Of a stretch of DNA of 39,992 bases, positions 1-39,616 are shown one piece after another. The stretch spans positions 1 through 39,992 of the IMG/VR virus record IMGVR_UViG_2875722834_000002; one strand, given 5' to 3'. The notes under the pieces were generated by a model. It did not search any database. It saw nothing but the letters and a program-made list of their open reading frames with translations, and was not told the DNA's origin. Position numbers and translations under genes: made by a program. Each line of letters opens with the position of its first letter. Position 1 is the stretch's first letter. Source of the stretch: a virus (taxonomy: Duplodnaviria; Heunggongvirae; Uroviricota; Caudoviricetes).

Positions 1-582
1 ATGCGGTTGCATTTGCCAGAGCTTGACGATGTTGTTTGGATGAAGGGTGTATTGATGCTAAATGTAAGGTTTGATTCAGAAAAGGCTTTAGAGGCCATTC
101 TGTACGTCGCCTCTAAAGCACCGATCCCAGATATCTATCATGTCGGAAAAATTCTTTATTATGCTGACAGGTTTCACCTTGAAAGTTTTGGACGCCTCAT
201 AACGGGCGATCACTATAACGCTATGAAGGATGGGCCTGTAGCAAGCAACACATACGATATTATAAAAATTGCTCGTGGAGATGGACGTTACATTCCTAAT
301 GGTTGTGATGTCGATTCTGTGCGAAAAGCATTTTCTGTATCAGGTATGATGATTGTGCCGAGCCGTGAAGCTGATGAAGACTTTTTTAGTGACTCAGATT
401 TAGAGTGTATTGATAAGTCTATCGCGATGCTTGGAAACATGTCCTTTGAAGCTATCAGAACCATGAGCCATGACGCGGCATGGGAACAGGCAGATCACAA
501 TGGTGAGATGTCTTTGGAATCGATAGTTGCACAGCTAAAAAATAGCAAATTAATACTGGATTATCTGAAGAACGGATATTGA
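1..582 (+). CDS. Panacea/DUF4065-domain protein (SocA/PanA-like putative antitoxin); N-terminus may be cut by the window edge
   Basis: ORF 1-582; motif region ALEAILYVASK...YHVGKILYYADRFHLESFGRLITGDHYNAMKDGPVASNTY matches the DUF4065/Panacea signature as I recall it; AT-rich relative to the phage core. Confidence 0.65.
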   Translation: MRLHLPELDDVVWMKGVLMLNVRFDSEKALEAILYVASKAPIPDIYHVGKILYYADRFHLESFGRLITGDHYNAMKDGPVASNTYDIIKIARGDGRYIPNGCDVDSVRKAFSVSGMMIVPSREADEDFFSDSDLECIDKSIAMLGNMSFEAIRTMSHDAAWEQADHNGEMSLESIVAQLKNSKLILDYLKNGY

Positions 583-587
583 TACTT

Positions 588-1049
588 ATGCTGGGTGATT
601 GTTTCCCTCCTGATTTTAAGGCTAATTTTAGTCGTGAAAGAGGTATATCACCCGGTGATGTATTGTATCTTCATTGTGATTTTACGACCCCACCTAAAGT
701 AAAATATATGGTGGTTGTTTGCTGTGAACCTCTTTTAGTTCTTCTAATAAATTCAGATATAAATGAATTTATTAAGAGAAACAATGATCTTATGGCTTGT
801 CAGGTCGAAATTAATAGAGAGGACCATGATTTTCTTAAATGGGACTCATTTGTTAATTGCATTGAGGCTCATGCTGCTTTCGATCTTGAAATTATTAAAG
901 AGAAAATAGCCATCCAATATGGCGACGTGCTAAAAGGTCGCATTACAGATCATTGTATGAGACAAGTTCGATGTGCAGTTGAGATATCTAAAATCATGGT
1001 TAAACGGCATAAAAAACTGATACTCGCTGCTCTTCAACATTATGAATAA
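588..1049 (+). CDS. Hypothetical protein, candidate toxin/effector partner of the Panacea-domain gene
   Basis: ATG at 588 lies 5 nt after the upstream stop (580-582); the track's 579 start is a TTG. No family recognised. A strong hairpin terminator follows immediately. Confidence 0.55.
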   Translation: MLGDCFPPDFKANFSRERGISPGDVLYLHCDFTTPPKVKYMVVVCCEPLLVLLINSDINEFIKRNNDLMACQVEINREDHDFLKWDSFVNCIEAHAAFDLEIIKEKIAIQYGDVLKGRITDHCMRQVRCAVEISKIMVKRHKKLILAALQHYE

Positions 1050-1076
1050 ACCCACCTTTGGATGGGTTTATTCATA
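1041..1076. terminator. Bidirectional intrinsic terminator between convergent genes
   Basis: Perfect 14-bp inverted repeat tatgaataaaccca / tgggtttattcata with an 8-nt loop, A/T-rich on both flanks. Confidence 0.7.
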
Positions 1077-1082
1077 TTCTAT

Positions 1083-2275: not shown

Positions 2276-2511
2276 TGGTTGCCTCCTTTACGGATCTGCG
2301 CTGCGATGCGCGAAAAAAAAGACTCCCGCGTATGACTGTTAAGAGCTGGCGCGAACGCTGCGTTAAGAACGGCAGCATCACAGCCGTCATCGATATAGAG
2401 CGCAATTTTTTTCTCCAGGCGCGCTTTGGCTTCCTGCAACTGCATACCCCGGCACGCACGCGGGATATACTCAGCAATTTGAGCGATAGATTTTTCGTTC
2501 TGTTTAAACAT
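2272..2511 (-). CDS. Hypothetical protein
   Basis: ATG at 2511 with GAGGTG RBS; start/stop overlaps with neighbours typical of a coupled phage early operon. Confidence 0.55.
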   Translation of the reverse strand: MFKQNEKSIAQIAEYIPRACRGMQLQEAKARLEKKIALYIDDGCDAAVLNAAFAPALNSHTRESFFSRIAAQIRKGGNQ

Positions 2512-2707
2512 GCTTCACCTCGATAGGCTTGATGCTGTCGATCAGCAGTCGGCGGCGCGTATTTTCTGCAAAGTGGCGGCGTCCGGTTTCTTTGTGGTAA
2601 AACTCGTTTTTTCCGACGACCCACATCCGCTTTGTCTGGTGCAGTTTTTTTACCTGCGGACCGTCTCGGGTGATAACAATTCCTGTATGAGTTTTTATCA
2701 CGCTCAT
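2504..2707 (-). CDS. Hypothetical protein
   Basis: ATG at 2707 with GGAGA RBS; 67 aa. Confidence 0.5.
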   Translation of the reverse strand: MSVIKTHTGIVITRDGPQVKKLHQTKRMWVVGKNEFYHKETGRRHFAENTRRRLLIDSIKPIEVKHV

Positions 2708-3066
2708 TTCTTATTCTCCGGTGCTTTTGGCATTACTGCCCAGTGAGTGATATTGACGTTTTCAAGGTCCCCGACCTGAAATGTCCACTGCCATTCTCCG
2801 GTTTCTTTTTGTCCCCAGGTGTACCAGAGAGAACGCCAGCCAATTAGCCAGCCTTCTCCGTTAGCATCAAATAACAGAACACTTTCATTTGCTGGTGGCA
2901 GTTCAGCTGACACTGGTATTATTTTGTTTTCCAGTGCCGTACATTTAGCTTCAAGCGCATCGAATTTACGTACCAGGTACTCAGCATTTGTTTCGTTCAC
3001 TTTCAGATCTCGCGGTACACATTTCCCGCGAAGAAACCCTTCCATTTCGAAAACATTCATGCGCAT
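2704..3066 (-). CDS. DUF551-like phage protein (YfdS-like)
   Basis: C-terminal Trp-rich region ...GEGWLIGWRSLWYTWGQ...ITHWAVMPKAPE resembles DUF551; 120 aa, same size and position as CPS-53 YfdS. Confidence 0.55.
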   Translation of the reverse strand: MRMNVFEMEGFLRGKCVPRDLKVNETNAEYLVRKFDALEAKCTALENKIIPVSAELPPANESVLLFDANGEGWLIGWRSLWYTWGQKETGEWQWTFQVGDLENVNITHWAVMPKAPENKK

Positions 3067-3620
3067 TTGCGTAACTCCGATAACTCGTTAAAACGTTCCA
3101 TAAACATCCCGTAGGCATGGCCTGGTGACAGTGGAATAACTTTGAACATCTCTGTCGCCGGGATACCTTCCAGTACAGGCCAGAAAGAGCCATCATCAAG
3201 CCCGAGATCGCGGCGTTCGGTTGCCAGCATAATGAGATCGGCATATTTCACTGGCGTGCTCATAACAGGAGGTAACCCGTATTTCTCACGGATTACGGCG
3301 TCTATTTTTTCTTCCATCCGTTTATAGTCAGGAAGAAGGCGTTTCAGTGGTGCGGGGATGTCCTGGCAATATGCTTCTGTTGCATCATGCATTAACGCTT
3401 CAAAAGCAAATTCCTGCGGTACCAGCTGGCTGCAAAGCACCGCATGTTGGGCGACGCTGTAGAAGTGTGAAAGATGTCCTGCAAAGCGACAGATATTTGA
3501 AAGGGAAACCGCGACATCGTTAATAACGATGTCGTCTTTATTTATCCTGTCATAATAAAAATGCTTCCCGGAAAAAGTTTTAATAAATGACATTTTATTC
3601 TCCACGTATATGCGCTGCAC
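3057..3620 (-). CDS. HD-domain 5'-deoxynucleotidase (YfdR-like)
   Basis: HD phosphohydrolase signature (H...HD...D) in ...FAGHLSHFYSVAQHAV...ALMHDATEAYCQDIP...; order and size match CPS-53 yfdR. Confidence 0.7.
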   Translation of the reverse strand: MQRIYVENKMSFIKTFSGKHFYYDRINKDDIVINDVAVSLSNICRFAGHLSHFYSVAQHAVLCSQLVPQEFAFEALMHDATEAYCQDIPAPLKRLLPDYKRMEEKIDAVIREKYGLPPVMSTPVKYADLIMLATERRDLGLDDGSFWPVLEGIPATEMFKVIPLSPGHAYGMFMERFNELSELRKCA

Positions 3621-3720
3621 CGCGCTGAATTCTGGTAAAAGGAAGCCCTCACTATCCGGCGATTATTGAGTAAATTATGTTTCCATAAATGCCCCCGCAG
3701 GGGCATTTGCAGTAATGAAA

Positions 3721-4545
3721 TCAGGCGGTGAAAGTACCAATAAAGGTTTCTACTTTGCTGTCTTTAAATTTCTCAACAAGCAGATCACGAAATTCGTTAG
3801 CCATTTCTTCCTGCACCGCTTCCAGCTGAATAATGCGCAGAACCAGTACAGGACGATCGCCAGTGATAATGCTGAGGCGTAATTTAAACGGACGTTCTTT
3901 AAGGCCTTCAGACGGAACGCATTTAAATTCAAATGCCACTGGCATAATGTCTTTGGTCTTCGCTTCGACAGACTCCATCAGGGAGCGTTTGCCGCTGAAG
4001 TCATTATCTTCAAAATCAGCGGTCTGGTTTGCTTCAATCGTGATTTTACGGACTGCCGCAGCCGCTTTTGTTGCCTGAATGGCGTCACCATTCGCATCAA
4101 AGCCCACAAGGTAGTCGGCCCAGTCTTCAATCCATTCTGCCAGTGACTTCTGGGAGTTACGCTCGCCGTTAACAGACAACAGAGCAGAGAACGGTGCTGT
4201 CTTTTTCAGTTTGAGAGTGGCGGTGTTATCTGCGTGACCTGGTTCATCAATAGTACCCAGGTTAAGCACACTAACGGCACGCATATTATCAGCATCGATA
4301 AAGCAGCGGGTGCCTTCATCTGCAAGATCTTTAGAATAACGGGTAAAATCATCGATGCTGGCAGTGGAAAGCGCGCCACGGAAACGGAAGCGATTTAAAT
4401 TAAATTTTTCCAGATCATGAATGCGGAAATTCTCAGGCAATGCCACAGCATCGGCACCAATCTTACTGATAATTTCATTAACACCCTGAGCAGAAATAAG
4501 GGCATGGATTTGATTAATTGCGGTTGAGTCTAAGTTCTGAGACAT
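3721..4545 (-). CDS. YfdQ-like protein (DUF2303)
   Basis: 274 aa, N-terminus MSQNLDS..., positioned between the YfdP-like and YfdR-like genes as in CPS-53. Confidence 0.6.
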
Positions 4546-4610
4546 AATAAGTCCTCACTATATTAAGATATTCAGTGATGAGATAAATAATCAGTTAATT
4601 AAGAACGATA

Positions 4611-4973
4611 TTAATGACCTGCTGCGCGGAGTTTTCCGTCAGGTTCACCGGCAAGAGTCAGTAATTGTCCCTGGTCTTCCTGCAGAATAGTCAGGCGACC
4701 ACCGCGATTGACATACATCGGCGTTTCGGTGGTGTCTTCTTCGGAAATTTTCCCGCGGTTAGTCGGGCGAACATATGAGAGTTTGTGTTTGATTTTCACA
4801 CGGTTCTCATCAAATGGTTCGATTTCCAGGTTGAGTGAGACCTTCCCTTTGGTTTTCGTGTTCATCACACCGGAAGCGACTTCACTGAGAACTGCGCCGA
4901 TTTTGGTTTCAAATACGCCGCCGTCCAGCTCCCCGATAAATGCCTGCACATCAGTACTGCGTTCGCTAGCCAT
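4611..4973 (-). CDS. Hypothetical protein (YfdP-like, 120 aa)
   Basis: Track ORF 4611-5204 trimmed to the internal ATG (codon 4971-4973), which has a GAGGAG RBS; the upstream extension is Cys/Arg/His-rich and not protein-like. Confidence 0.55.
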   Translation of the reverse strand: MASERSTDVQAFIGELDGGVFETKIGAVLSEVASGVMNTKTKGKVSLNLEIEPFDENRVKIKHKLSYVRPTNRGKISEEDTTETPMYVNRGGRLTILQEDQGQLLTLAGEPDGKLRAAGH

Positions 4974-5603
4974 TTTGCTGCTCCTCATCATATCGACCCT
5001 GCAAGGTCGGTTGGTTTCTCCACAAAACAGAGAAGAACACCTGCGGTGGCAGCCGCCCGGATGGATTGGGTTATGAGCCCGTCGTCCGGTGATGCTCTTC
5101 TCTGTTTTGTAAAAAGAGCGGTACCAGCCGGAAGCAAGTGTACAAACTGGTACCGCCAAAGCAGTGGCTGTTGTGGTGGGGTTGTCACTCAGGTGTATGG
5201 TCAACCTGACAATCCGGTGTCCTCAACGGGGAAAGAGTAACCCCGCCATACTTACCGCCGCGCCATTTCGCGGATTACCACAACGCTGAGAGCACTTAGC
5301 CAGTTACGGCACCACACTTTGTCGCGGTTCCATAAATGCCCTCATCGTTGCACCCTGGTCTCTTCCCAGGCGTCAAACCGAATCGCCACGCTGGTTAGGC
5401 GTCTTATCAGCATCCTCATTGACTTGCACATTCCGGCTACCTGGTTTGTTTGCCCGAGCAAGGAGTGGATTGTCCCCTTTAACGTCCCCAGACCGCTAAC
5501 GACGCATGTGCCATACGCCGTGTTACAACCAAATTTTGTTTAATCTTGCCTGTGGCATGTTTCTTTTAGATACATTATGTATCTCAAGGGTACATTGTCA
5601 AGT

Positions 5604-5628
5604 ATAAAAAAACCTGCCGAAGCAGGTT
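5604..5628 (-). terminator. Intrinsic terminator downstream of the repressor gene
   Basis: Hairpin aacctgc-cgaa-gcaggtt followed on the minus strand by a T7 run (plus-strand aaaaaaa at 5605-5611). Confidence 0.6.
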
Positions 5629-5639
5629 ATAAATATTGA

Positions 5640-6314
5640 TTAGGCCTTTATTTGGTATCTTCTTGGTTTTCCTGAGAAAATTACTGTACCAATTATAGAG
5701 CAATTACCGTTAATCTTAATGTAAGGCTCAGGCCAGTTTGGGTTTAATGCTTTGAGATAACGCTGTGTTCCATCTTCTATCAATCGCTTGAAGGTGGTTT
5801 CGCCTGTATCGTGCATCAATGCAATAACGTCGTCACCGTGGCAGGCAGGGACTTCGGGATCAACAAAAATCATGTCTCCCGGGCGGTACTCATCAATCAT
5901 TGAATCACCAATCACCCGCAAGATATAAGTCATTTCGCCACAGGGTACAGGGCAGGGATAAGTTTCTGCTGTGCTCAAATCAACCTCAGAATAGCCAACT
6001 TCTTTCCATGCTCCGGCCTGTACCCATGATATGACAGGGACTAACGTTATTTGTTTGTTAGTAATTGAAACATCAGGTTTTTTTGTGATGTTTGTTGTCT
6101 GGTGTTCTTGATCAAGCCATCCGACAGGCAGGTCGAAACATTTTTCGATGTGCCGTGCCATGCTGTCACCGATATTTTTAGTAGCACCATCTCCCATAAA
6201 CCTGCTGGTCTGGGTTGGCTCGCGATCAATCATGGTGGCAAAGGAAGAATTCCCGCCAACACCATCTCTCAGTTTTCTGGCGTTAGACCGCCGGATGTCA
6301 TGGACTGTTTTCAT
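5640..6314 (-). CDS. CI-like prophage repressor (HTH + S24 LexA-type autopeptidase domain)
   Basis: C-terminal S24 motifs: Ala-Gly cleavage site (VQAGAW), catalytic Ser in VIGDSM, Lys in TFKRL; divergent from a Cro-like gene. Confidence 0.85.
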   Translation of the reverse strand: MKTVHDIRRSNARKLRDGVGGNSSFATMIDREPTQTSRFMGDGATKNIGDSMARHIEKCFDLPVGWLDQEHQTTNITKKPDVSITNKQITLVPVISWVQAGAWKEVGYSEVDLSTAETYPCPVPCGEMTYILRVIGDSMIDEYRPGDMIFVDPEVPACHGDDVIALMHDTGETTFKRLIEDGTQRYLKALNPNWPEPYIKINGNCSIIGTVIFSGKPRRYQIKA

Positions 6315-6330
6315 AACGAAATTAAAACCT

Positions 6331-6405
6331 TTGTACCGATAGGGTACAAGTATCTTGAAGGTTCATCTCAATCATGTAATATGTATATCGGAGGTACATA
6401 TTGTA
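6331..6405 (+). promoter_or_regulatory. Immunity-region operator/promoter segment (palindromic operator plus PR-like promoter)
   Basis: Palindrome TTGTACC-gatag-GGTACAA (6331-6349); -35 TTGAAG (6355-6360), 16-nt spacer, -10 TAATAT (6377-6382); a second palindrome TACATATTGTA overlaps the cro start and resembles TACATTATGTA at 5571-5581. Confidence 0.5.
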
Positions 6406-6605
6406 TGAAAGCGTATTGGGACTCTTTAACCAAAGAACAGCAGGGCGAGTTGGCCGGAAAAGTTGGCTCAACACCAGGCTACTTACGGCTAGTTTTCAAT
6501 GGTTATAAAAAAGCCAGTTTTGTGCTGGCTAAAAAACTTGAGCAATGCACGTCAGGTGCAATTACGAAATCTGACTTAAGACCGGATATCTATCCGAAAG
6601 ATTAA
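6405..6605 (+). CDS. Cro-like repressor (YdaS-family HTH)
   Basis: ATG at 6405 with GGAGG RBS; 66 aa; C-terminal ...ITKSDLRPDIYPK typical of YdaS/Cro-like proteins. Confidence 0.75.
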   Translation: MKAYWDSLTKEQQGELAGKVGSTPGYLRLVFNGYKKASFVLAKKLEQCTSGAITKSDLRPDIYPKD

Positions 6606-6636
6606 CAGAACACCTTCAATTTTTAACCACAGAACG

Positions 6637-7200
6637 ATGAGGCTAACCGTGGGTAAGCATCACTGGAAAGTAGAAAAACAGCCTGAGTGGTACGTGAAAG
6701 CTGTCAGAAAAACTATCGCGGCGTTGCCGGGGGGTTACGCTGAAGCTGCTGACTGGCTGGATGTAACAGAGAACGCATTATTTAACCGCCTTCGTGCCGA
6801 TGGCGATCAGATTTTCCCGCTGGGATGGGCAATGGTTTTGCAACGTGCTGGTGGAACTCACTTCATTGCTGACGCTGTGGCGCAGTCTGCAAATGGCGTC
6901 TTTGTGTCTCTTCCTGACGTCGAGGATGTGGACAACGCCGATATTAACCAGCGCCTGCTGGAAGTCATTGAACAGATTGGCAGTTATTCCAGACAGATTC
7001 GTTCGGCAATCGAAGACGGTGTGGTGGAACCGCATGAGAAGACAGCAATTAACGACGAGCTGTATCTCTCAATTTCGAAGCTGCAGGAGCATGCAGCACT
7101 GGTCTACAAAATCTTTTGCATTTCAGAAAGTAATGACGCCCGCGAGTGTGCAGCTCCGGGCGCCGTGGCGTGTCGTGACTGTGGAGAAACTAACGCATGA
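6637..7200 (+). CDS. YdaT-like regulatory protein (CII-position protein)
   Basis: 187 aa, immediately downstream of the YdaS/Cro-like gene, as in the Rac ydaS-ydaT pair; assignment from gene order and remembered similarity only. Confidence 0.5.
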
Positions 7201-7535
7201 ACAGTTTAACAACACACTACCGTCGCTCGCAACTGATTGCGCTTCCTGTACCGGGTGGAAAAGCGAAGGTGGAGTATTGCTATGCAGTTAATGTACCAGG
7301 TGACAGGGAAATTGTAACCCACAGCTTTGCTGAGTGGGCTGTGGGTGATTTCAACCGGCAGAAGGAGACAGTCCTTTGCGACAAGTTAACCGCTGGTTCA
7401 AAGATCACTACGGAGTGCCCGTCAGAGTCATTCGTTGGGAGCCGGAAACACAACGAGTTATCTACCTCCGCGAAGGCTATGAGCATGAGTGCTTCAGCCC
7501 GCTCGAACAGTTTCGTCGTAAATTCAGGGAAATAG
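7197..7535 (+). CDS. Hypothetical protein; the 3' half may be mis-framed (see finding)
   Basis: ORF 7197-7535; N-terminal half looks protein-like, C-terminal half is low complexity, while the -1 frame (7376-7555) encodes a well-formed 59-aa sequence. Confidence 0.4.
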
Positions 7536-7544
7536 AGGTCGGTC

Positions 7545-8486
7545 ATGAGCACTAAATTAACCGGCTATGTATGGGATGGTTGCGCTGCATCAGGCATGAA
7601 ATTATCCAGCGTGGCAATTATGGCCCGCCTGGCTGATTTCAGTAATGACGAAGGTGTGTGCTGGCCATCAATTGAAACTATTGCCCGTCAGATTGGCGCG
7701 GGGATGAGTACCGTCAGGACGGCTATCGCACGGCTGGAAGCAGAAGGCTGGTTAACGCGTAAGGCGCGTCGCCAGGGTAACCGCAATGCGTCGAATGTTT
7801 ATCAGCTTAACGTTGCGAAGCTTCAGGCAGCGGCATTTTCTCAACTGTCAGATTCTGACCCGTCAAAATCTGACGCATCAAAATCTGACCCGTCAAAATT
7901 TGATGCGTCGAAATCTGGCAAAAAAGCGGGTTTTCACCCGTCAGAATCTGGCGGGGATCCGTCAGTAAAATCAAAACATGATCCGTCAGATAAAAAACCT
8001 TCTCGTCCGGACGCTTCGCAACCGGACACGCAGACGGATGAACAGGATTTTTTAACTCGCCATCCTGATGCGGTTGTATTCAGCCCTAAAAAGCGCCAGT
8101 GGGGAACGCAGGATGATTTGACCTGCGCACAGTGGCTCTGGAAAAAAATCATCGCCCTGTACGAGCAGGCTGCCGAATGTGACGGCGAGGTGGTTCGTCC
8201 CAAAGAACCGAACTGGACAGCCTGGGCAAACGAAATTCGCCTGATGTGTGTGCAGGATGGTCGTACTCACAAACAAATCTGCGAGATGTACAGCCGCGTC
8301 AGCCGCGATCCGTTCTGGTGCCGTAACGTGCTCAGCCCGTCGAAGTTGCGGGAAAAATGGGATGAGCTTTCCCTGCGCTTATCACCGTCCGTCAGCACGT
8401 ACACCGAAAAACGCGAAGACCCGTACTTCAAATCCAGTTACGACAACGTGGACTACAGCCAGATCCCGGCAGGATTCAGGGGGTGA
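7545..8486 (+). CDS. Replication initiation / replisome-organiser protein (lambda O-like, N-terminal winged HTH)
   Basis: N-terminal HTH-like region, internal Ser/Asp/Lys-rich linker encoded by iteron repeats, located after the cro/YdaT-like genes. Confidence 0.7.
   Translation: MSTKLTGYVWDGCAASGMKLSSVAIMARLADFSNDEGVCWPSIETIARQIGAGMSTVRTAIARLEAEGWLTRKARRQGNRNASNVYQLNVAKLQAAAFSQLSDSDPSKSDASKSDPSKFDASKSGKKAGFHPSESGGDPSVKSKHDPSDKKPSRPDASQPDTQTDEQDFLTRHPDAVVFSPKKRQWGTQDDLTCAQWLWKKIIALYEQAAECDGEVVRPKEPNWTAWANEIRLMCVQDGRTHKQICEMYSRVSRDPFWCRNVLSPSKLREKWDELSLRLSPSVSTYTEKREDPYFKSSYDNVDYSQIPAGFRG
7847..7998 (+). repeat. Iteron array inside the O-like gene (putative phage replication origin)
   Basis: About 8 imperfect copies of a 15-bp unit cGTCAaAATCTGAC(c/g) (e.g. 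7861-7875, 7876-7890, 7891-7905), ending in ccgtcagataaaaaac. Confidence 0.6.
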
Positions 8487-8977
8487 TCATGAGTCTTTTG
8501 AATGAAGTTCAGAAATTCATTGAAGCCCATCCGGGATGTACTTCCGGAGACATTGCGGATGCTTTTGCAGGTTACTCACGGCAGCGCGTTCTGCAGTCAG
8601 CAAGCAAGTTACGTCAGAGTGGGCGTGTGGCTCACCGTTGTGAAGGAGATACACGCAGACATTTCCCGCGCCTGACTGAGAGAGCGCAGGAACCGGAACC
8701 ACAACCAGTTCGAGAAACCAGACCTGTGCGCAATTTCTATGTCGGCACTAACGATCCACGGGTGATTTTGTGCCTGACCCGCCAGGCTGAAGAACTGGAG
8801 TCCAGGGGCTTATACCGTCGTGCTGCAACCGTGTGGATGGCGGCATTCCGTGAAAGCCACTCCCAGCCAGAACGAAACAATTTTCTGGCGCGTCGTGAGC
8901 GGTGCTTACGGAAAAGCAGCAAGCGCGCTGCATCGGGTGAAGAGTGGTATCTGTCAGGGAATTACGTGGGGGCTTAA
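8483..8977 (+). CDS. PerC-family transcriptional activator-like protein
   Basis: C-terminal ...RQAEELESRGLYRRAATVWMAAF...ARRERC resembles the PerC family motif. Confidence 0.55.
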   Translation: MIMSLLNEVQKFIEAHPGCTSGDIADAFAGYSRQRVLQSASKLRQSGRVAHRCEGDTRRHFPRLTERAQEPEPQPVRETRPVRNFYVGTNDPRVILCLTRQAEELESRGLYRRAATVWMAAFRESHSQPERNNFLARRERCLRKSSKRAASGEEWYLSGNYVGA

Positions 8978-9630
8978 TGAGTAATAAATATTGCCAGGCG
9001 CTGGTGGAACTGCGGAACAAACCAGCCCATGAACTGAAGGAAGTGGGCGATCAGTGGCGCACGCCGGACAACATTTTCTGGGGAATTAACACCCTGTTTG
9101 GCCCGTTTGTTCTGGATCTGTTTACTGACGGTGATAACGCCAAATGTGCCGCGTATTACACGGCGGAAGATAACGCGCTGGCGCATGACTGGTCAGAACG
9201 TCTTGCGGAGCTTAAAGGTGCTGCCTTTGGTAATCCCCCATACAGCCGCGCCAGTCAGCATGAGGGGCAATACATCACCGGCATGCGTTACATCATGAAA
9301 CATGCCAGTGCCATGCGTGATAAGGGCGGGCGCTATGTTTTCCTGATCAAAGCTGCCACCAGCGAAGTGTGGTGGCCGGAAGATGCGGACCATATTGCTT
9401 TTATTCGCGGGCGTATTGGTTTTGAACTGCCTGCCTGGTTTATCCCGAAGGACGAGAAGCAGGTGCCGACAGGAGCGTTCTTCGCTGGTGCTATTGCTGT
9501 TTTCGACAAGACCTGGAAGGGACCGGCAATCAGCTACATCGGGCGCGATGAACTTGAGGCATGTGGTGAGGCCTTTCTGGCGCAGGTTCGCCAGCAGGCA
9601 GAAAAACTTGTCAGGGAGATGGCGGCATGA
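8977..9630 (+). CDS. Phage Dam-like DNA N6-adenine methyltransferase
   Basis: Start at 8977 (TAATG overlap with the upstream stop); catalytic NPPY motif in ...GAAFGNPPYSRASQ... Confidence 0.75.
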   Translation: MSNKYCQALVELRNKPAHELKEVGDQWRTPDNIFWGINTLFGPFVLDLFTDGDNAKCAAYYTAEDNALAHDWSERLAELKGAAFGNPPYSRASQHEGQYITGMRYIMKHASAMRDKGGRYVFLIKAATSEVWWPEDADHIAFIRGRIGFELPAWFIPKDEKQVPTGAFFAGAIAVFDKTWKGPAISYIGRDELEACGEAFLAQVRQQAEKLVREMAA

Positions 9631-9953
9631 CGACGTTAACTCAATGCCAGCAGCAGGTGCTGGATATGCTGATTTCTTACCAGAAAGAGCGTGGCTTTCC
9701 GCCAACCAATCAGGAGGTGGCAACCATGCTGGGATACCGTTCAGTGAATGCAGCGGTAGAGCATCTTCGCGCACTGGAGAAAAAAGGCGTCATCACGATA
9801 AAGCGTGGCGTGGCCCGGGGGATAACGCTTCATACCGCGGTGAAGGACGACGACAGCGAGGCGGTCGGGATTATCCGCGCACTGCTTGCCGGTGAGGAAA
9901 ACGCAAGGCTGCGTGCAGCCCACTGGTTACATGAGAGGGGCCTGAAAGTATGA
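9627..9953 (+). CDS. LexA-N-terminal-like winged-helix DNA-binding protein
   Basis: 108 aa; N-terminus QQQVLDMLISYQKERGFPPTNQEVATMLGYRS resembles the LexA DNA-binding domain. Confidence 0.5.
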   Translation: MTTLTQCQQQVLDMLISYQKERGFPPTNQEVATMLGYRSVNAAVEHLRALEKKGVITIKRGVARGITLHTAVKDDDSEAVGIIRALLAGEENARLRAAHWLHERGLKV

Positions 9954-10339
9954 AGCTGATCCTGCCTTTTCCGCCCAGCGTGAACACGTACTGGCGACAC
10001 CCCAACAAAGGGGCGTTTGCAGGTAAGAGCCTGATAAGCGCGGCGGGGCGAAAATTCCAGAGCGCGGCGTGCGCAGCAATAGTTGAGCAGTTACGTCGTC
10101 TGCCGAAACCAACGTCGGCACCTGCTTCAGTGGAGATCGTGTTGTTTCCTCCGGATAACCGGATCCGCGATCTGGACAACTATAACAAGGCGCTGTTTGA
10201 CGCCCTGACCCACGCGGGTGTGTGGGAAGACGACAGTCAGGTGAAAAGGATGCTGGTGGAGTGGGGACCGGTTATCCCGGAAGGGAAGGTCGAGATCACC
10301 ATCAGTAAGTACGAGAAAACGGCGGGTGCAGCCGCCTGA
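9950..10339 (+). CDS. rusA: Holliday-junction resolvase RusA
   Basis: N-terminus MKLILPFPPSVNTYWRH and the ...RDLDNYNKALFDALT... Asp motif typical of RusA. Confidence 0.8.
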   Translation: MKLILPFPPSVNTYWRHPNKGAFAGKSLISAAGRKFQSAACAAIVEQLRRLPKPTSAPASVEIVLFPPDNRIRDLDNYNKALFDALTHAGVWEDDSQVKRMLVEWGPVIPEGKVEITISKYEKTAGAAA

Positions 10340-10358
10340 TCAAGAGGAGAAACGAAGT

Positions 10359-11168
10359 ATGAATAATCTGATGGTCATTGATGGTATTGAAGTTCGTCGT
10401 GATGCTTATGGGCGTTACAGCCTGAACGATCTGCATCGCGCAGCAGTAGCATCTGGTGCAAATGCCAGAACCAAGGAGCCAGGAAAGTTTCTTTCCAGCC
10501 AACAAACTGTTGAACTTGTTCATGAATTGACCAACACCCAGAATTTGGGTGTTGATCCGGTGAGTGTGATTCATGGGGGAAATGAACGGGGAACGTATGT
10601 CTGCAAGGAACTGGTGTATGCCTATGCAATGTGGATCAGCCCGTCATTCCATCTGAAGGTGATCCGTACTTTCGATATGGTAACCAGCACACCGGAAAAA
10701 TTATCCGGGCAGGCTGCTGACAAGATGCAGGCTGGCGTGATTCTGCTGGACTTTATGCGCCGGGAGTTAAACCTGTCTAACTCTTCAGTGCTTGGTGCCT
10801 GTCAGAAACTCCAGGAGGCTGTTGGCTTACCGAATCTGGCACCGCGCTATGCCATTGATGCACCTGCTGACGCGCCTGATGGCTCAAGCCGCCCGACGCT
10901 GTCGCTGAGTGCACTGCTGAAGCAGTATGGTATCCGCCTGACGGCTAATCAGGCATATCACCAGATGGTGAAGCTGGGGATCGTCGAGCAGCGCGAACGA
11001 TACAGCCGTACCGGGATTAACAACATCAAAAAATTCTGGTCGCTGACGGCGAAAGGCTGCATGTTCGGCAAGAACATCACCAGTCCCGCAAATCCGCGTG
11101 AGACGCAGCCGCATTTCTTCGAATCCCGATTCCCTGAGCTGTTAAAGCTGCTCGATACCGTTCATTGA
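10359..11168 (+). CDS. KilA-N domain protein (antirepressor-like)
   Basis: ATG at 10359 with AGGAGA RBS; N-terminal KilA-N-like region ...RYSLNDLHRAAV...KELVYAYAMWISPSFHLKVIRTF. Confidence 0.65.
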   Translation: MNNLMVIDGIEVRRDAYGRYSLNDLHRAAVASGANARTKEPGKFLSSQQTVELVHELTNTQNLGVDPVSVIHGGNERGTYVCKELVYAYAMWISPSFHLKVIRTFDMVTSTPEKLSGQAADKMQAGVILLDFMRRELNLSNSSVLGACQKLQEAVGLPNLAPRYAIDAPADAPDGSSRPTLSLSALLKQYGIRLTANQAYHQMVKLGIVEQRERYSRTGINNIKKFWSLTAKGCMFGKNITSPANPRETQPHFFESRFPELLKLLDTVH

Positions 11169-11169
11169 G

Positions 11170-12165
11170 GTGACCGTGAGAGCACTACTGACCCCTGAAA
11201 TTGCCCCGCGTATGGGGATTGTATTGTTCAGACCAGGTTCAGAGCTGATGCCCCTGTTTATGCAGGGGCGTGTCCTGCTGGAGCCTGAGCCGGAACGTTA
11301 TTCATCTTTCGCCAGTGGTGCCGTTCCGGCGGCATCACAACCGCTGGCGGATGATCCTGCCGTTAGGGCCGTGTTCCGCAATGAGGCAGTGATCCGTCGT
11401 GCTGGTGGCGTGGAATGTCTTGAAAGCTGGTTACTTCGTGAAAAAGGCTGCCAGTGGCCTCATTCCGACTGGCACAGCGAGAACATGACCACAATGCGAC
11501 ACGCGCCGGGCGCGATCCGTCTGTGCTGGCACTGCGATAACCAGCTGCGCGATCAGTTCACGGAACGGCTGGAATCAATGGCAACGGATAACTGTGCCCG
11601 CTGGGTGTTGTCTGTAGTCCGTCTGGATCTCGGTTTTGATGATAACCATGCCGTGACAATGCCGGAACTGTGCTGGTGGCTGATTCGTAATGACCTGGCG
11701 GATGCCTTACCGGAAAGTGCAGCCCGTAAGGCACTGAGATTACCGAAGCCTGTTGTGCCGTCTGTCACCCGGGAAAGTGACCTTGTGCCTTCGGTTCCTG
11801 CCACCAGCATCATCCAGGATAAGGCGAAAAAGGTGCTGGCGCTGAAAGTGGATCCGGAGTCGCCGGAGTCTTTTATGTTACGCCCAAAACGCCGCCGCTG
11901 GGTTAATGAAAAGTACACGCGCTGGGTTAAGACACAGCCGTGTGCATGTTGTGGAAAGCCTGCTGATGATCCCCACCACCTGATAGGCCACGGTCAGGGT
12001 GGAATGGGTACAAAAGCGCATGACCTCTTTGTGTTGCCTTTGTGCAGAAAGCATCACGACGAGCTGCATGCGGATACCGTGGCATTTGAAGAGAAGTATG
12101 GCTCTCAGCTGGAGCTGATATTTCGTTTTATCGATCGTGCGCTGGCAATTGGCGTATTGGCGTAA
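11170..12165 (+). CDS. DUF968-like phage protein with C-terminal HNH-like Cys/His cluster
   Basis: GTG start at 11170; C-terminal CACCGKPADDPHHLIGHG...CRKHHDELH. Confidence 0.6.
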   Translation: MTVRALLTPEIAPRMGIVLFRPGSELMPLFMQGRVLLEPEPERYSSFASGAVPAASQPLADDPAVRAVFRNEAVIRRAGGVECLESWLLREKGCQWPHSDWHSENMTTMRHAPGAIRLCWHCDNQLRDQFTERLESMATDNCARWVLSVVRLDLGFDDNHAVTMPELCWWLIRNDLADALPESAARKALRLPKPVVPSVTRESDLVPSVPATSIIQDKAKKVLALKVDPESPESFMLRPKRRRWVNEKYTRWVKTQPCACCGKPADDPHHLIGHGQGGMGTKAHDLFVLPLCRKHHDELHADTVAFEEKYGSQLELIFRFIDRALAIGVLA

Positions 12166-36038: not shown

Positions 36039-36734
36039 TTATGCACTATTTTTAGGTCTTGTAACCCGAGGTGGGAGTTGTTTGGTTATATGTTCAAGTG
36101 ATTTTTTGCCCAAGATAGTTCTTTGGACAAAACTTTCTATAGCTTCTAGCATTTGTTCGAACTCACTTTTATTCGGGCTCCAACTGCGATGTGCGGCGGC
36201 GTTTCCTGCATCAATTACAGAAGATATAACGCATGCCTCAGTGTCGCCTATGACTCCATCTTGTTTTAATTTTTCAACTTTTTCACCAAGCGGCAAACCG
36301 GGGTGAATTTGTAACAGTTCAGCAGTTCGATCAAAAATCGTCCGTAAACCGATGGACGAAAGGATGAAATGGTCAGAAGTATATGAAGAATACATTTCAT
36401 TAAATATTTGAAAGAGCTGACGATCAACTGATTCAAGCTTGGATAACCATATCGGAGCTTGAAATGTTTCAGCGGCAGGATAGGTAGTGATCATATCTAT
36501 AGGCGTTTCTACAAATTCACCATCACGATATTCGTGGGTAGTATGCTCACTGAAGTGTTCGTTGTGGTGATAGAAGACAGTATCACAGCCATTGCATTGG
36601 AGTAGGTGATGGTAATGGTACCCATAAACTGGATATTGGGAATCCTCCCAGCTAGTGGTTAGCTTCCCATGCACAGTGCAGTTACGTAACCCACCGCATG
36701 TAGGGCAAAGAGCCTTGAGTATTTCCTTTTTCAT
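36039..36734 (-). CDS. Zinc-ribbon protein with C-terminal DUF4145-like helical domain (candidate Abi/defence gene)
   Basis: N-terminal CPTCGG...C...CNGC zinc ribbon; C-terminal ...GEKVEKLKQDGVIGDTEACVISSVIDAGNAAAHRSW...FEQMLEAIESFVQRTI resembles DUF4145; AT-rich; own sigma70-like promoter. Confidence 0.6.
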   Translation of the reverse strand: MKKEILKALCPTCGGLRNCTVHGKLTTSWEDSQYPVYGYHYHHLLQCNGCDTVFYHHNEHFSEHTTHEYRDGEFVETPIDMITTYPAAETFQAPIWLSKLESVDRQLFQIFNEMYSSYTSDHFILSSIGLRTIFDRTAELLQIHPGLPLGEKVEKLKQDGVIGDTEACVISSVIDAGNAAAHRSWSPNKSEFEQMLEAIESFVQRTILGKKSLEHITKQLPPRVTRPKNSA

Positions 36735-37392: not shown

Positions 37393-38490
37393 TCAAGAGG
37401 TCTTATTTCTGCTCCTTTGGAGCTCTTCAAAACGATTATGTAAAGATTTCGGATACAGTTCGGTATATACCTGCCATAGCACGTTTAATGAACGATGCCC
37501 TGTAACCTGGGCGACTTCCTCAATACTAAAACCAGCCTCAAATAAGCGACTTGCCCCTTCTCTACGCAAATCATGGTATCGCAGATCCTTAATACCTAAT
37601 TTGCTTCTTACTCTCTGAAATCCCGCAGTAACAGAAGTGCTGTTATATGGAAAAATGAATTCCGATTTTTGGGGCTGTCGTTGGACGATATCCCAGGCTT
37701 CCCCAAGCAAGGCTACTTTCATGTGGTTGCCTTCCTTTTTGCGTGGATCTTTCCTGTCTCTTACGAGTATAGATTTTTGTTCCTGGTCGAGATCTTCCCA
37801 TCGTAACCGGCATACTTCTCCGATTCGCATACAGGACCATACAGAAAATTTGAGGATATCAACGAACGGAATTTTTGAGCATTTATGAGTAGATCGTTGT
37901 TGAAGGCCTGCAATGAGCATGTCCAGTTCATCAGATGCTGGTCTACGATTACGACGGTTTGATTTACCAATCAAACCAAGTTTAAGTAGATATGGGCGAG
38001 CGCTTATCGCCGGGTTTGATGTGTAATTAATTCCGTATACAGGTTTGGCCGCATCCAGAACACTGCCAAGATAACTAACATCGTGGCTGACTGTTGCAGG
38101 ACCTGCACCAGCGTTGTTTCTTAGCCTGCAATGTTCAATTACGTCATTTTCTGTCAGTTCAGATAGTTTGATCGCGGAGATGTCACTATCCATAAGCAGT
38201 TCCAGCACATATCTTTTAGTACGGCCTGCTTTACCTCCGGCATTTGGGTCATTTAAATATTTGTGTAGTAAGTCACGGACTGTAAGTCCGTCAACTGCAT
38301 TTGATGATGGAATGCCATATAGATCTAATTCCATCACTTTCTGTGTGCCCCATGTTTTGGCATGAGCATGTTTAGGGAATGTTTTGCTTTCCCTGTAAGT
38401 GATAACACCTTTTTCTTTGATAATCACATTACAGCGATAGCGTGGTGTGCCATCGGATTTTAGTCGTTTCTCTATGTTATAGTACGCCAT
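37393..38490 (-). CDS. int: Tyrosine integrase (dusA-associated type)
   Basis: 365 aa; C-terminal catalytic region with HDLRR, GHRS and a Tyr in ...WQVYTELY; divergent from dusA. Confidence 0.85.
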   Translation of the reverse strand: MAYYNIEKRLKSDGTPRYRCNVIIKEKGVITYRESKTFPKHAHAKTWGTQKVMELDLYGIPSSNAVDGLTVRDLLHKYLNDPNAGGKAGRTKRYVLELLMDSDISAIKLSELTENDVIEHCRLRNNAGAGPATVSHDVSYLGSVLDAAKPVYGINYTSNPAISARPYLLKLGLIGKSNRRNRRPASDELDMLIAGLQQRSTHKCSKIPFVDILKFSVWSCMRIGEVCRLRWEDLDQEQKSILVRDRKDPRKKEGNHMKVALLGEAWDIVQRQPQKSEFIFPYNSTSVTAGFQRVRSKLGIKDLRYHDLRREGASRLFEAGFSIEEVAQVTGHRSLNVLWQVYTELYPKSLHNRFEELQRSRNKTS

Positions 38491-38578
38491 TACACGACCT
38501 CGTTATTTCGGGTTCCCATAAAACGTGGGAACCTGTGCGGGAACCTAACGCGAGAAAAATAGCCTGAAATGTTCAAAA

Positions 38579-39616
38579 ATGCACGATAATCATGAAACAA
38601 AAAAAATTAATCAAACCAGCGTGATGCCTGAAAAAACTGGTGTTTACTGGAATTCTCGGTTTAGCATTGCTCCTATGCTCGACTGGACGGACAGACATTG
38701 CCGCTATTTCTTGCGTCTGCTTTCCCGCAATACGTTGCTGTATACCGAAATGGTGACCACAGGGGCGATTATTCACGGTAAAGGTGATTATCTGGCGTAC
38801 AGTGAAGAAGAACATCCGGTAGCGTTGCAACTGGGCGGTAGCGATCCGGCGGCGCTGGCGCAGTGTGCAAAGCTGGCAGAAGCGCGCGGATATGATGAGA
38901 TCAACCTGAATGTCGGCTGCCCGTCTGACCGGGTGCAGAACGGCATGTTTGGTGCGTGTCTGATGGGTAATGCGCAGCTGGTTGCCGACTGCGTGAAAGC
39001 GATGCGCGATGTGGTGTCGATTCCGGTGACGGTGAAAACGCGTATTGGCATCGACGACCAGGACAGCTATGAATTTCTCTGCGATTTCATCAATACCGTT
39101 TCCGGCAATGGCGAGTGTGAGATGTTCATCATCCACGCACGTAAAGCCTGGCTTTCGGGGTTAAGCCCGAAAGAAAACCGTGAAATCCCGCCGCTCGATT
39201 ATCCGCGTGTGTATCAACTGAAGCGTGACTTTCCGCATCTGACAATGTCGATTAACGGTGGTATCAAGTCGCTGGAAGAGGCCAAAGCACACCTGCAACA
39301 TATGGATGGCGTGATGGTCGGGCGCGAGGCGTATCAGAATCCGGGTATTCTGGCGGCGGTAGACCGGGAGATCTTTGGTTCCTCGGATACCGATGCCGAT
39401 CCGGTGGCGGTAGTGCGCGCCATGTATCCGTACATTGAGCGTGAACTCAGCCAGGGGACGTATCTCGGCCATATTACCCGGCATATGTTGGGCTTGTTCC
39501 AGGGTATTCCTGGCGCGCGGCAGTGGCGGCGTTATTTAAGTGAAAATGCCCATAAAGCGGGTGCAGACATTAATGTGCTGGAACACGCGCTCAAACTGGT
39601 GGCGGATAAGCGTTAA
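38579..39616 (+). CDS. dusA: tRNA-dihydrouridine synthase A; the true start may be the internal ATG at 38624, and the 5' end may be prophage-derived
   Basis: Full-length Dus family protein matching enterobacterial DusA over essentially its whole length. Confidence 0.9.

Follow-up and report, generated by a model that had tools for sequence, protein, structure and literature searches.

A probable Panacea-type toxin-antitoxin cassette with a predicted MazF-fold partner at the left end of a dusA-integrated Escherichia coli prophage

The 39,992-nucleotide virus record IMGVR_UViG_2875722834_000002 (Caudoviricetes; this whole stretch of DNA is called the window below) begins with two closely spaced genes on the + strand: panA (1-582), which encodes a putative antitoxin that is a Panacea domain standing alone, and panT (588-1049), which encodes a putative toxin of 153 amino acids (aa) with a predicted MazF/Kid/CcdB fold. 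The two genes probably form a type II toxin-antitoxin (TA) module of the PanAT kind, in which PanA binds and blocks PanT and free PanT is a MazF-type endoribonuclease that stops translation, the module serving phage exclusion, prophage retention or both. PanA would be translated first and would neutralise PanT by binding it; once PanA has been lost, outcompeted or triggered, the PanT that is set free would most likely cut cellular RNA, and translation would stop. The benefit is likely to be an abortive-infection-type protection against other phages, a stabilisation of the prophage, or both.

The original prediction for this region, made from the letters of the DNA alone, proposed a PanA-type two-gene module, antitoxin first, at the cargo end of a prophage; this holds, and the pairing is kept in every related locus tested. 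It also proposed that the partner might be a new toxin without a recognisable family, which is not supported: PanT has the predicted MazF/Kid/CcdB fold and its Photorhabdus homologues are listed as PanT cluster T5 in the entries of Dataset S1 of Kurata et al. 2022 (PNAS, PMC8832971) that concern this family. The pair is an E. coli-native addition to a known kind of PanAT and not a new toxin class, a fairly ordinary finding of modest interest that leaves the current understanding of the field unchanged. It gives a name and a testable mechanism to a "hypothetical protein" (WP_001547986.1). The only T5 representative tested came from a distant host and was no clean TA in E. coli; an E. coli-native pair offers the best chance to settle the TA status of T5, which RNA is cut and whether the Panacea domain is a sensor.

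Results

panA encodes a stand-alone Panacea domain

The first open reading frame (ORF) had been assigned to DUF4065/Panacea from a block of motifs, and a hidden Markov model search agrees with that assignment: ORF 1-582 matches the Pfam family PF13274 (SocA_Panacea) with an E-value of 6.8e-20 and 72.5 bits, against a gathering cut-off of 25.7. The matched part spans residues 50-161 of the 193-aa product that PGAP calls from nucleotide (nt) 1, that is positions 148-483 on the + strand, and the identical coding sequence is annotated in RefSeq as "Panacea domain-containing protein" (WP_001547985.1).

The true start of PanA is probably the ATG at nt 55, giving a protein of 175 aa, so that the PGAP call would be 18 codons too long. 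This is suggested by the conservation of the family, which starts at M19 (nt 55), by a Shine-Dalgarno-like GAAGGG 7 nt upstream of nt 55, and by the fact that an ATG at nt 1 would have almost no leader if transcription started from the candidate promoter described below. The homologues are mostly of 175-180 aa, and several of them, including the copy in Serratia phage OS31, begin exactly at the equivalent of M19.

The AlphaFold2 model of the 175-aa PanA (predicted local distance difference test, pLDDT, 94.9; predicted TM-score, pTM, 0.90) is a single compact domain with no helix-turn-helix, no separate neutralising domain and no disordered tail; a Foldseek search of this model against the PDB returned no significant match. 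PanA falls in the class that Ernits et al. 2023 (PMC10440598) describe as stand-alone, where contact with the toxin is made by the Panacea domain itself, which neutralises it directly.

Distant relatives of PanA (35-48% identity) were also seen at two loci (L040:2501-3118 and L041:2501-2986) with no downstream partner, and one of these orphans, located in a phage-like region, has 161 aa and is shorter at its C-terminus.

panT encodes a conserved protein with a predicted MazF/Kid/CcdB fold

The stop codon of panA (TGA, 580-582) is followed by the 5-nt spacer TACTT (583-587, + strand) and by the ATG of panT at 588, as had been read from the sequence, and this gap is short enough to allow translational coupling. 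ATG 588 is taken as the start of panT because the N-terminus that it gives, MLGD, agrees with that of the homologues; a TTG at 579 was considered and rejected. PanT is identical to WP_001547986.1. The family comprises 41 clusters at 90% identity, all of them "hypothetical" and all of about 153 aa, and 1247 clusters at 50% identity (E <= 0.001) of about 150 aa, for which reason the pair is not a product of chance ORFs; its relatives extend to Acidobacteriota, Chloroflexi and Gallionellaceae. Nothing usable was found for PanT in Pfam, PHROGs, PADLOC or NCBIfam, and the matches to RRM_2 (E 0.31) and phrog_29007 (E 0.009) were dismissed as noise.

The AlphaFold2 model of PanT, built with 22 homologues (pLDDT 88.3, pTM 0.82), places the protein in the MazF/Kid/CcdB fold, with a predicted SH3-like barrel that can be superposed on the solved members; MazF-mt3 is the top match of the model in Foldseek (E 5.7e-4). 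In the secondary structure of the model the beta-barrel core covers approximately residues 22-118 (651-941, + strand) and is flanked by additional helices, one N-terminal (residues 8-18) and two C-terminal (within residues 121-148). K39 and S87 do not vary among 66 diverse relatives, in which G23, F32, K37, N55, S56, Q72, F82, L83 and C91 are also nearly invariant.

The catalytic residues of E. coli MazF are an arginine (R29) and a threonine or serine (T52), located in the beta1-beta2 and beta3-beta4 loops. In the model of PanT, K39 opens beta2 and N55-S56 closes beta3, and an hhalign alignment, non-significant in itself (probability 1.8%), sets N55 opposite the catalytic threonine of MazF. 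K39 and N55-S56 may accordingly occupy the positions of the catalytic arginine and threonine, a lead and not a result given the non-significant alignment and the modelled secondary structure on which it is based; if the equivalence of residues in that alignment is accepted, a lysine replaces the catalytic arginine.

Natural variants of panT also occur. In two O166:H15 strains and in strain AST20, a +1 insertion of A has entered a short run of this base (four A, the last at 902, within GAGAAAATAG, 897-902, + strand) and shortens PanT to 112 aa; PanA is identical in all three. The 112-aa allele was counted on 82 contigs and the intact protein on at least 1000. A truncated toxin beside a retained antitoxin is the usual decay pattern of TA loci, and by analogy it supports reading the pair as one.

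The pairing of panA and panT is conserved across phyla

Wherever the gene upstream of a PanT homologue could be read, it is a Panacea gene of the same strand directly before it; the 19 upstream proteins tested all match PF13274 and are 37-62% identical to PanA of the window. In 15 other loci the spacer between the two genes lies between -8 and +42 nt, compared with 5 nt here, and the order with panA first and the tight spacing are kept across phyla. The flanking genes vary among loci and the contexts are unrelated. These loci have the features by which Kurata et al. 2022 recognise a PanAT locus, namely a partner within 100 nt or less, occurrence in at least two species and no longer conserved operon. 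The pairwise identities of PanA and of PanT co-vary (r 0.70; Mantel 0/5000), as is expected for a unit that moves together, an effect to which shared ancestry alone also contributes.

The contexts include the chromosome of an Idiomarina (L002). Serratia phage vB_SspS_OS31 (L039:1944-2974) is the only sequenced phage in which a homologous pair was found (PanA 49% and PanT 46% identical), and its pair occupies another cargo (moron) slot, with the Q antiterminator on one side and the methyltransferase and lysis genes on the other. Among the plasmids of PLSDB, none encodes a relative. In metagenomic contigs (L003-L006, approximately 2500-11400) the pair was observed in a small integrative island with an integrase gene at either boundary, beside a tRNA-synthetase gene and directly after a ParE-toxin/HTH (helix-turn-helix) TA pair.

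Relation to PanAT cluster T5 and to other TA systems

PanT is 53-56% identical over its full length to homologues from Photorhabdus (loci L008, L013 and L011). An exact look-up showed that these proteins or their cluster-mates are the accessions WP_065390163.1, WP_036849733.1, WP_054475897.1 and WP_046973966.1, which the entries of Dataset S1 concerned with cluster T5 list for the pairs of Photorhabdus namnaonensis PB45.5, P. khanii NC19, P. heterorhabditis VMG and P. thracensis; PanT therefore belongs to this MazF-like cluster, published in silico (PMC8832971). According to the same entries, the Photorhabdus pairs have the antitoxin first and a gap of 3 nt, and the T5 representative is matched by HHpred to EndoA/MazF (99.5%) and to CcdB (98.3-98.6%). 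The pair of the window shares with them an antitoxin-first operon, a stand-alone Panacea protein ("noNTD"), a "hypothetical" MazF/EndoA-like partner of about 150 aa and a spacing of 3-5 nt. The E. coli/Salmonella prophage pair itself was not found in the part of Dataset S1 that was searched. Cluster T28, which lists a pair from Sodalis praecaptivus, was also considered and rejected: in the part of the dataset that describes it, its HHpred assignment is RelE/ParE-like, none of its other species is represented in the PanT family, and its Sodalis entry does not share the accession of the Sodalis homologue found here. A look-up of contigs for that protein returned nothing.

Validated pairs of PanA with a MazF-like toxin are those of Pseudomonas moraviensis (cluster T6) and Bifidobacterium ruminantium, the toxins of which inhibit translation, and the P. 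moraviensis PanA and PanT form a complex (PMC8832971). Both resemble the window pair in having a Panacea antitoxin and an EndoA/PemK/MazF-like toxin, and differ from it in their PanT clusters, which are not T5.

The classical systems are further away. MazEF and Kid-Kis (PemIK) have a DNA-binding antitoxin of the AbrB/SpoVT type, MazE, with a disordered tail, in contrast to the globular Panacea protein found here; MazF toxins are of about 110 aa, whereas the 153-aa PanT carries extra helices, lacks a PemK match in Pfam and appears to have a lysine in place of the catalytic arginine. SocAB of Caulobacter crescentus, a type VI system, is similar in that its antitoxin has the same Pfam domain, and differs in that SocB, which blocks the DnaN sliding clamp, is unrelated to PanT. 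A type III system (ToxIN, AbiQ or CptIN) was rejected, as neither repeats nor an Rfam match were found.

A self-contained cassette in the slot between attL and xis

The dusA-integrating phages mEp460, phiSTEC1575-Stx2k and Lys8385Vzw share the backbone of the window up to position -79/-36 on the left and again from 1094-1105 on the right, with 87-89% identity on the att side and 97-99% on the xis side. Between these flanks (approximately -79 to 1105 in the window; L034:1933-3000, L035:64-1396 and L036:1572-3000 in the comparison loci) lies a slot occupied by different cassettes, always on the + strand. In the window the panAT module is a cassette of about 1.15 kb between attL and xis, and it contains a promoter-like site, the two genes and a predicted terminator.

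Four cassettes are common among 5426 complete E. coli genomes, in 687 of which one or another of them occurs. The mEp460 cassette (357 genomes) encodes proteins of 177 and 57 aa and no Panacea domain; that of Lys8385Vzw (205 genomes) encodes a 190-aa PanA followed by proteins of 139 and 57 aa; that of phiSTEC1575-Stx2k (79 genomes) encodes a 157-aa PanA and a 182-aa protein; and the PanA-PanT cassette of the window is found in 46 genomes. Three of the four are thus led by panA, each with a different partner. Identity among the three PanAs does not exceed about 30-33% in partial alignments, so that whole cassettes and not partners alone were exchanged. Four alternative cassettes on one phage backbone offer a natural experiment for cassette-specific phage exclusion. 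The arrangement recalls the cargo and defence hotspots at prophage ends, such as those of P2 and P4, which also have a fixed slot with conserved backbone flanks (here att and xis) and alternative self-contained cassettes; it differs from them in belonging to a dusA-integrating lambdoid lineage and in the Panacea gene that stands first in three of the four common cassettes.

Two of the other partners deserve mention. The 182-aa protein of phiSTEC1575-Stx2k (L035:804-1352) has two C-terminal hydrophobic segments of transmembrane type and no significant Pfam match, and may be a membrane-targeting PanT. The 139-aa protein of Lys8385Vzw (L036:2290-2709) scores 12.6 bits with the PanT family over the motif DHRFIKHPSYVVYAEA in a targeted profile test, and may be a distant relative with the MazF fold.

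Expression signals of the cassette

The pair is AT-rich, as had been remarked: the GC content is 0.35-0.42 across positions 1-1200, compared with 0.46-0.51 in the next 2 kb. It had been supposed that an upstream partner or a promoter might lie outside the window. No partner is there, the DNA to the left holding only the attL junction and a remnant of host dusA, while a promoter-like site, TTGACC-18-TAAGAT, does occur at window positions -41 to -12. It remains a candidate only, because it scores 9 out of 12 and sites of this kind are no commoner in the region than in shuffled sequences.

The remnant of host dusA keeps the promoter region of that gene, which reads towards panA, and its ORF enters phage DNA 18 base pairs (bp) before the stop. 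A scan of the region between this orphaned promoter and panA found no terminator-like site, so that read-through from the host promoter into panA is possible in the lysogen. The cassette would be transcribed away from the attL junction and against the early-left operon, as would be expected of genes expressed in the lysogen.

The cassette ends in a hairpin (1041-1076, + strand) that overlaps the stop codon of panT and faces the convergent xis gene. The 14-bp perfect stem that had been noticed is present, with two further inner pairs; on the + strand the folding free energy (dG) is -19.5 kcal/mol (z -4.7), and on the - strand a larger fold that contains the hairpin has a z of -7.3, none of 200 shuffles folding as well in either case. 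The description of this hairpin as a bidirectional terminator is supported only in part, because the T-rich tail and the terminator-like call are limited to the + strand. Each cassette appears to bring its own terminator, as the hairpin lies within cassette-specific DNA.

Discussion

Weighing the type II reading

Several results weigh against a type II module with a MazF-type toxin. At the sequence level, the Pfam family PemK_toxin (PF02452) gives no match at E <= 0.1 to PanT of the window or to any of its 66 relatives; searches of PDB sequences with profiles built from 22 and from 66 PanT sequences found no MazF; and the hhalign comparison mentioned above, between the PanT profile and an alignment of four MazF sequences, is non-significant (two of the four sequences were verified against the PDB; the other two are Bacillus subtilis EndoA and Kid). 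PADLOC-DB 2.0 holds no family that matches PanA or PanT at E <= 1. The promoter-like site is of the quality already described. Experimentally, the only T5 pair tested according to the published T5 entries, from Chryseobacterium bovis, had a toxic PanT and a PanA that was itself toxic, and no rescue was seen, while a MazF-like protein associated with PanA in Flavobacterium xanthum was non-toxic in E. coli (PMC8832971). Finally, the fold is common to CcdB, a gyrase poison, and for this reason it does not prove that the target of PanT is RNA.

Some sequence signal does exist: in a targeted test with five sequences (database size 1), the profile of the 66 relatives scored 8.3 bits against Staphylococcus aureus MazF, in the beta4-beta5 region. 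As the sequence link is otherwise undetectable, the assignment to MazF rests on the fold and on the published HHpred result for T5. No T5 system has been validated as a TA, and the E. coli pair joins T5 by homology. What the analysis establishes is the identity of the Panacea domain, the predicted fold of PanT, the conserved pairing, the boundaries of the cassette and the place of PanT in T5; direct binding of PanT by PanA, cleavage of RNA, toxicity and the role of the pair are inferred. With these limits, a type II module remains the likely explanation of the region.

A possible refinement, which overlaps with the type II reading and to which we give only tentative credence, is that the pair works primarily as a phage-sensing abortive infection system, addiction or growth control being secondary. 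The cassette sits in a cargo slot of the prophage and its transcription would not depend on the lytic operons; in 284 further E. coli genomes this slot holds different cassettes that are also led by PanA, with partners that are unrelated, and the module also occupies another moron site in the Serratia phage; the hypothesis of Panacea as a sensor was stated by Ernits et al. 2023 (PMC10440598). Against it stand the lack of a match in PADLOC, the fact that no defence phenotype for a T5 pair was found in the literature, and the circumstantial nature of the hotspot location.

A more elaborate proposal, which we regard as doubtful, is that the att-xis slot of dusA-integrating lambdoid prophages is given over to the exchange of sensor-effector cassettes led by Panacea, which would shield the lysogen from other phages; Panacea would sense a cue of infection and release an RNase of MazF fold, with family-specific extra helices and a lysine-based active site, the cassette being transcribed in the lysogen from its own promoter as well as by read-through from that of dusA. 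If this were true, the read-through would tie expression to the integrated state.

It is rather unlikely that the pair is not a working TA in E. coli at all, PanT being degenerate or without toxicity and the two genes a phage accessory pair that is neutral or acts in another way. Eight PanTs, including one MazF-like protein, were non-toxic in E. coli (Kurata et al. 2022, PMC8832971), truncated alleles of panT and orphan panA genes occur naturally, and PanT would lack the canonical catalytic arginine of MazF. These observations have to be set against the strong full-length conservation of both proteins (with 1247 clusters of PanT and the invariant K39 and S87), the gene order and tight spacing kept across phyla, and the excess of the intact allele, on at least 1000 contigs, over the frameshifted one, on 82; moreover, a real TA is expected to decay by losing its toxin while keeping its antitoxin. 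An older annotation of Panacea proteins was "phage-associated protein GepA".

With the same architecture, PanT might instead be a CcdB-like poison of DNA gyrase, which would act through trapped gyrase-DNA complexes and SOS induction. The shared fold speaks for this; the structural score with CcdB is below those with MazF structures, the antitoxin is of a type unlike that of CcdAB and a gyrase target is unsupported for PanT, so that we consider it improbable.

A SocAB-like type VI mechanism, in which PanA would deliver PanT to ClpXP for degradation, is recommended by the name of the Pfam family, taken from SocA, and by the RefSeq label "SocA family protein" of some copies, and is most improbable, as PanA reaches only 17.1 bits against a cut-off of 190 in the NCBIfam SocA_antitoxin equivalog (NF047745), its partner is not SocB-like and the five tested PanAT pairs formed stable complexes, as type II systems do (PMC8832971).

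The prophage and its ends

Ten complete E. coli chromosomes match bases 1-1400 of the window with 100% identity, and in them host dusA survives as a 5' remnant of 105 bp, the end of which is 141 bp left of window position 1; the attL junction is 140 bp to the left, and the remnant lies at 141-245 bp (L001:7756-7878) or, in the alignment with the 5' end of the intact gene, at 141-247 bp. At the other end, the window carries an intact dusA (38579-39616, + strand), of which the 5' end with the att core (38576-38682, + strand) is supplied by the phage. Over 107 bp the host remnant shares 82% identity with this phage-derived 5' end, and each of them ends in ATGCTCGA; the window thus corresponds almost exactly to a single prophage of about 38.7 kb that sits in the 5' end of dusA. 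A replacement for the 5' end of the gene comes from the phage, and panAT is the first pair of genes inside attL.

The backbone gene next to the cassette on its right is xis (1083-1355, - strand, PGAP coordinates), which encodes an excisionase of the PrtN family (Pfam PyocinActivator, E 3.9e-23; PHROG excisionase, E 6.9e-40). It is convergent with panT, in agreement with the earlier remark that the pair lies past the last early-operon gene of the opposite strand, and it is followed by an exonuclease gene and the remainder of the leftward early operon. The tyrosine integrase of the prophage is encoded at the opposite end (37393-38490, - strand), adjoining the reconstituted dusA, so that the right end of the window contains a DUF4145 gene, dinI, the integrase gene and intact dusA.

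IS26 and IS5 interrupt the right part of the prophage in one of the genomes identical over 1-1400 (NZ_CP061764.1, 4693000-4706000), and this part abuts a CP4-like island with CbtA/YeeU; as the right end is rearranged there, the right end of the window itself was used. The DUF4145 protein (231 aa, 36039-36734, - strand; Pfam E 8.8e-10) adjoins dinI and the integrase, and its gene may be a second cargo gene of the prophage.

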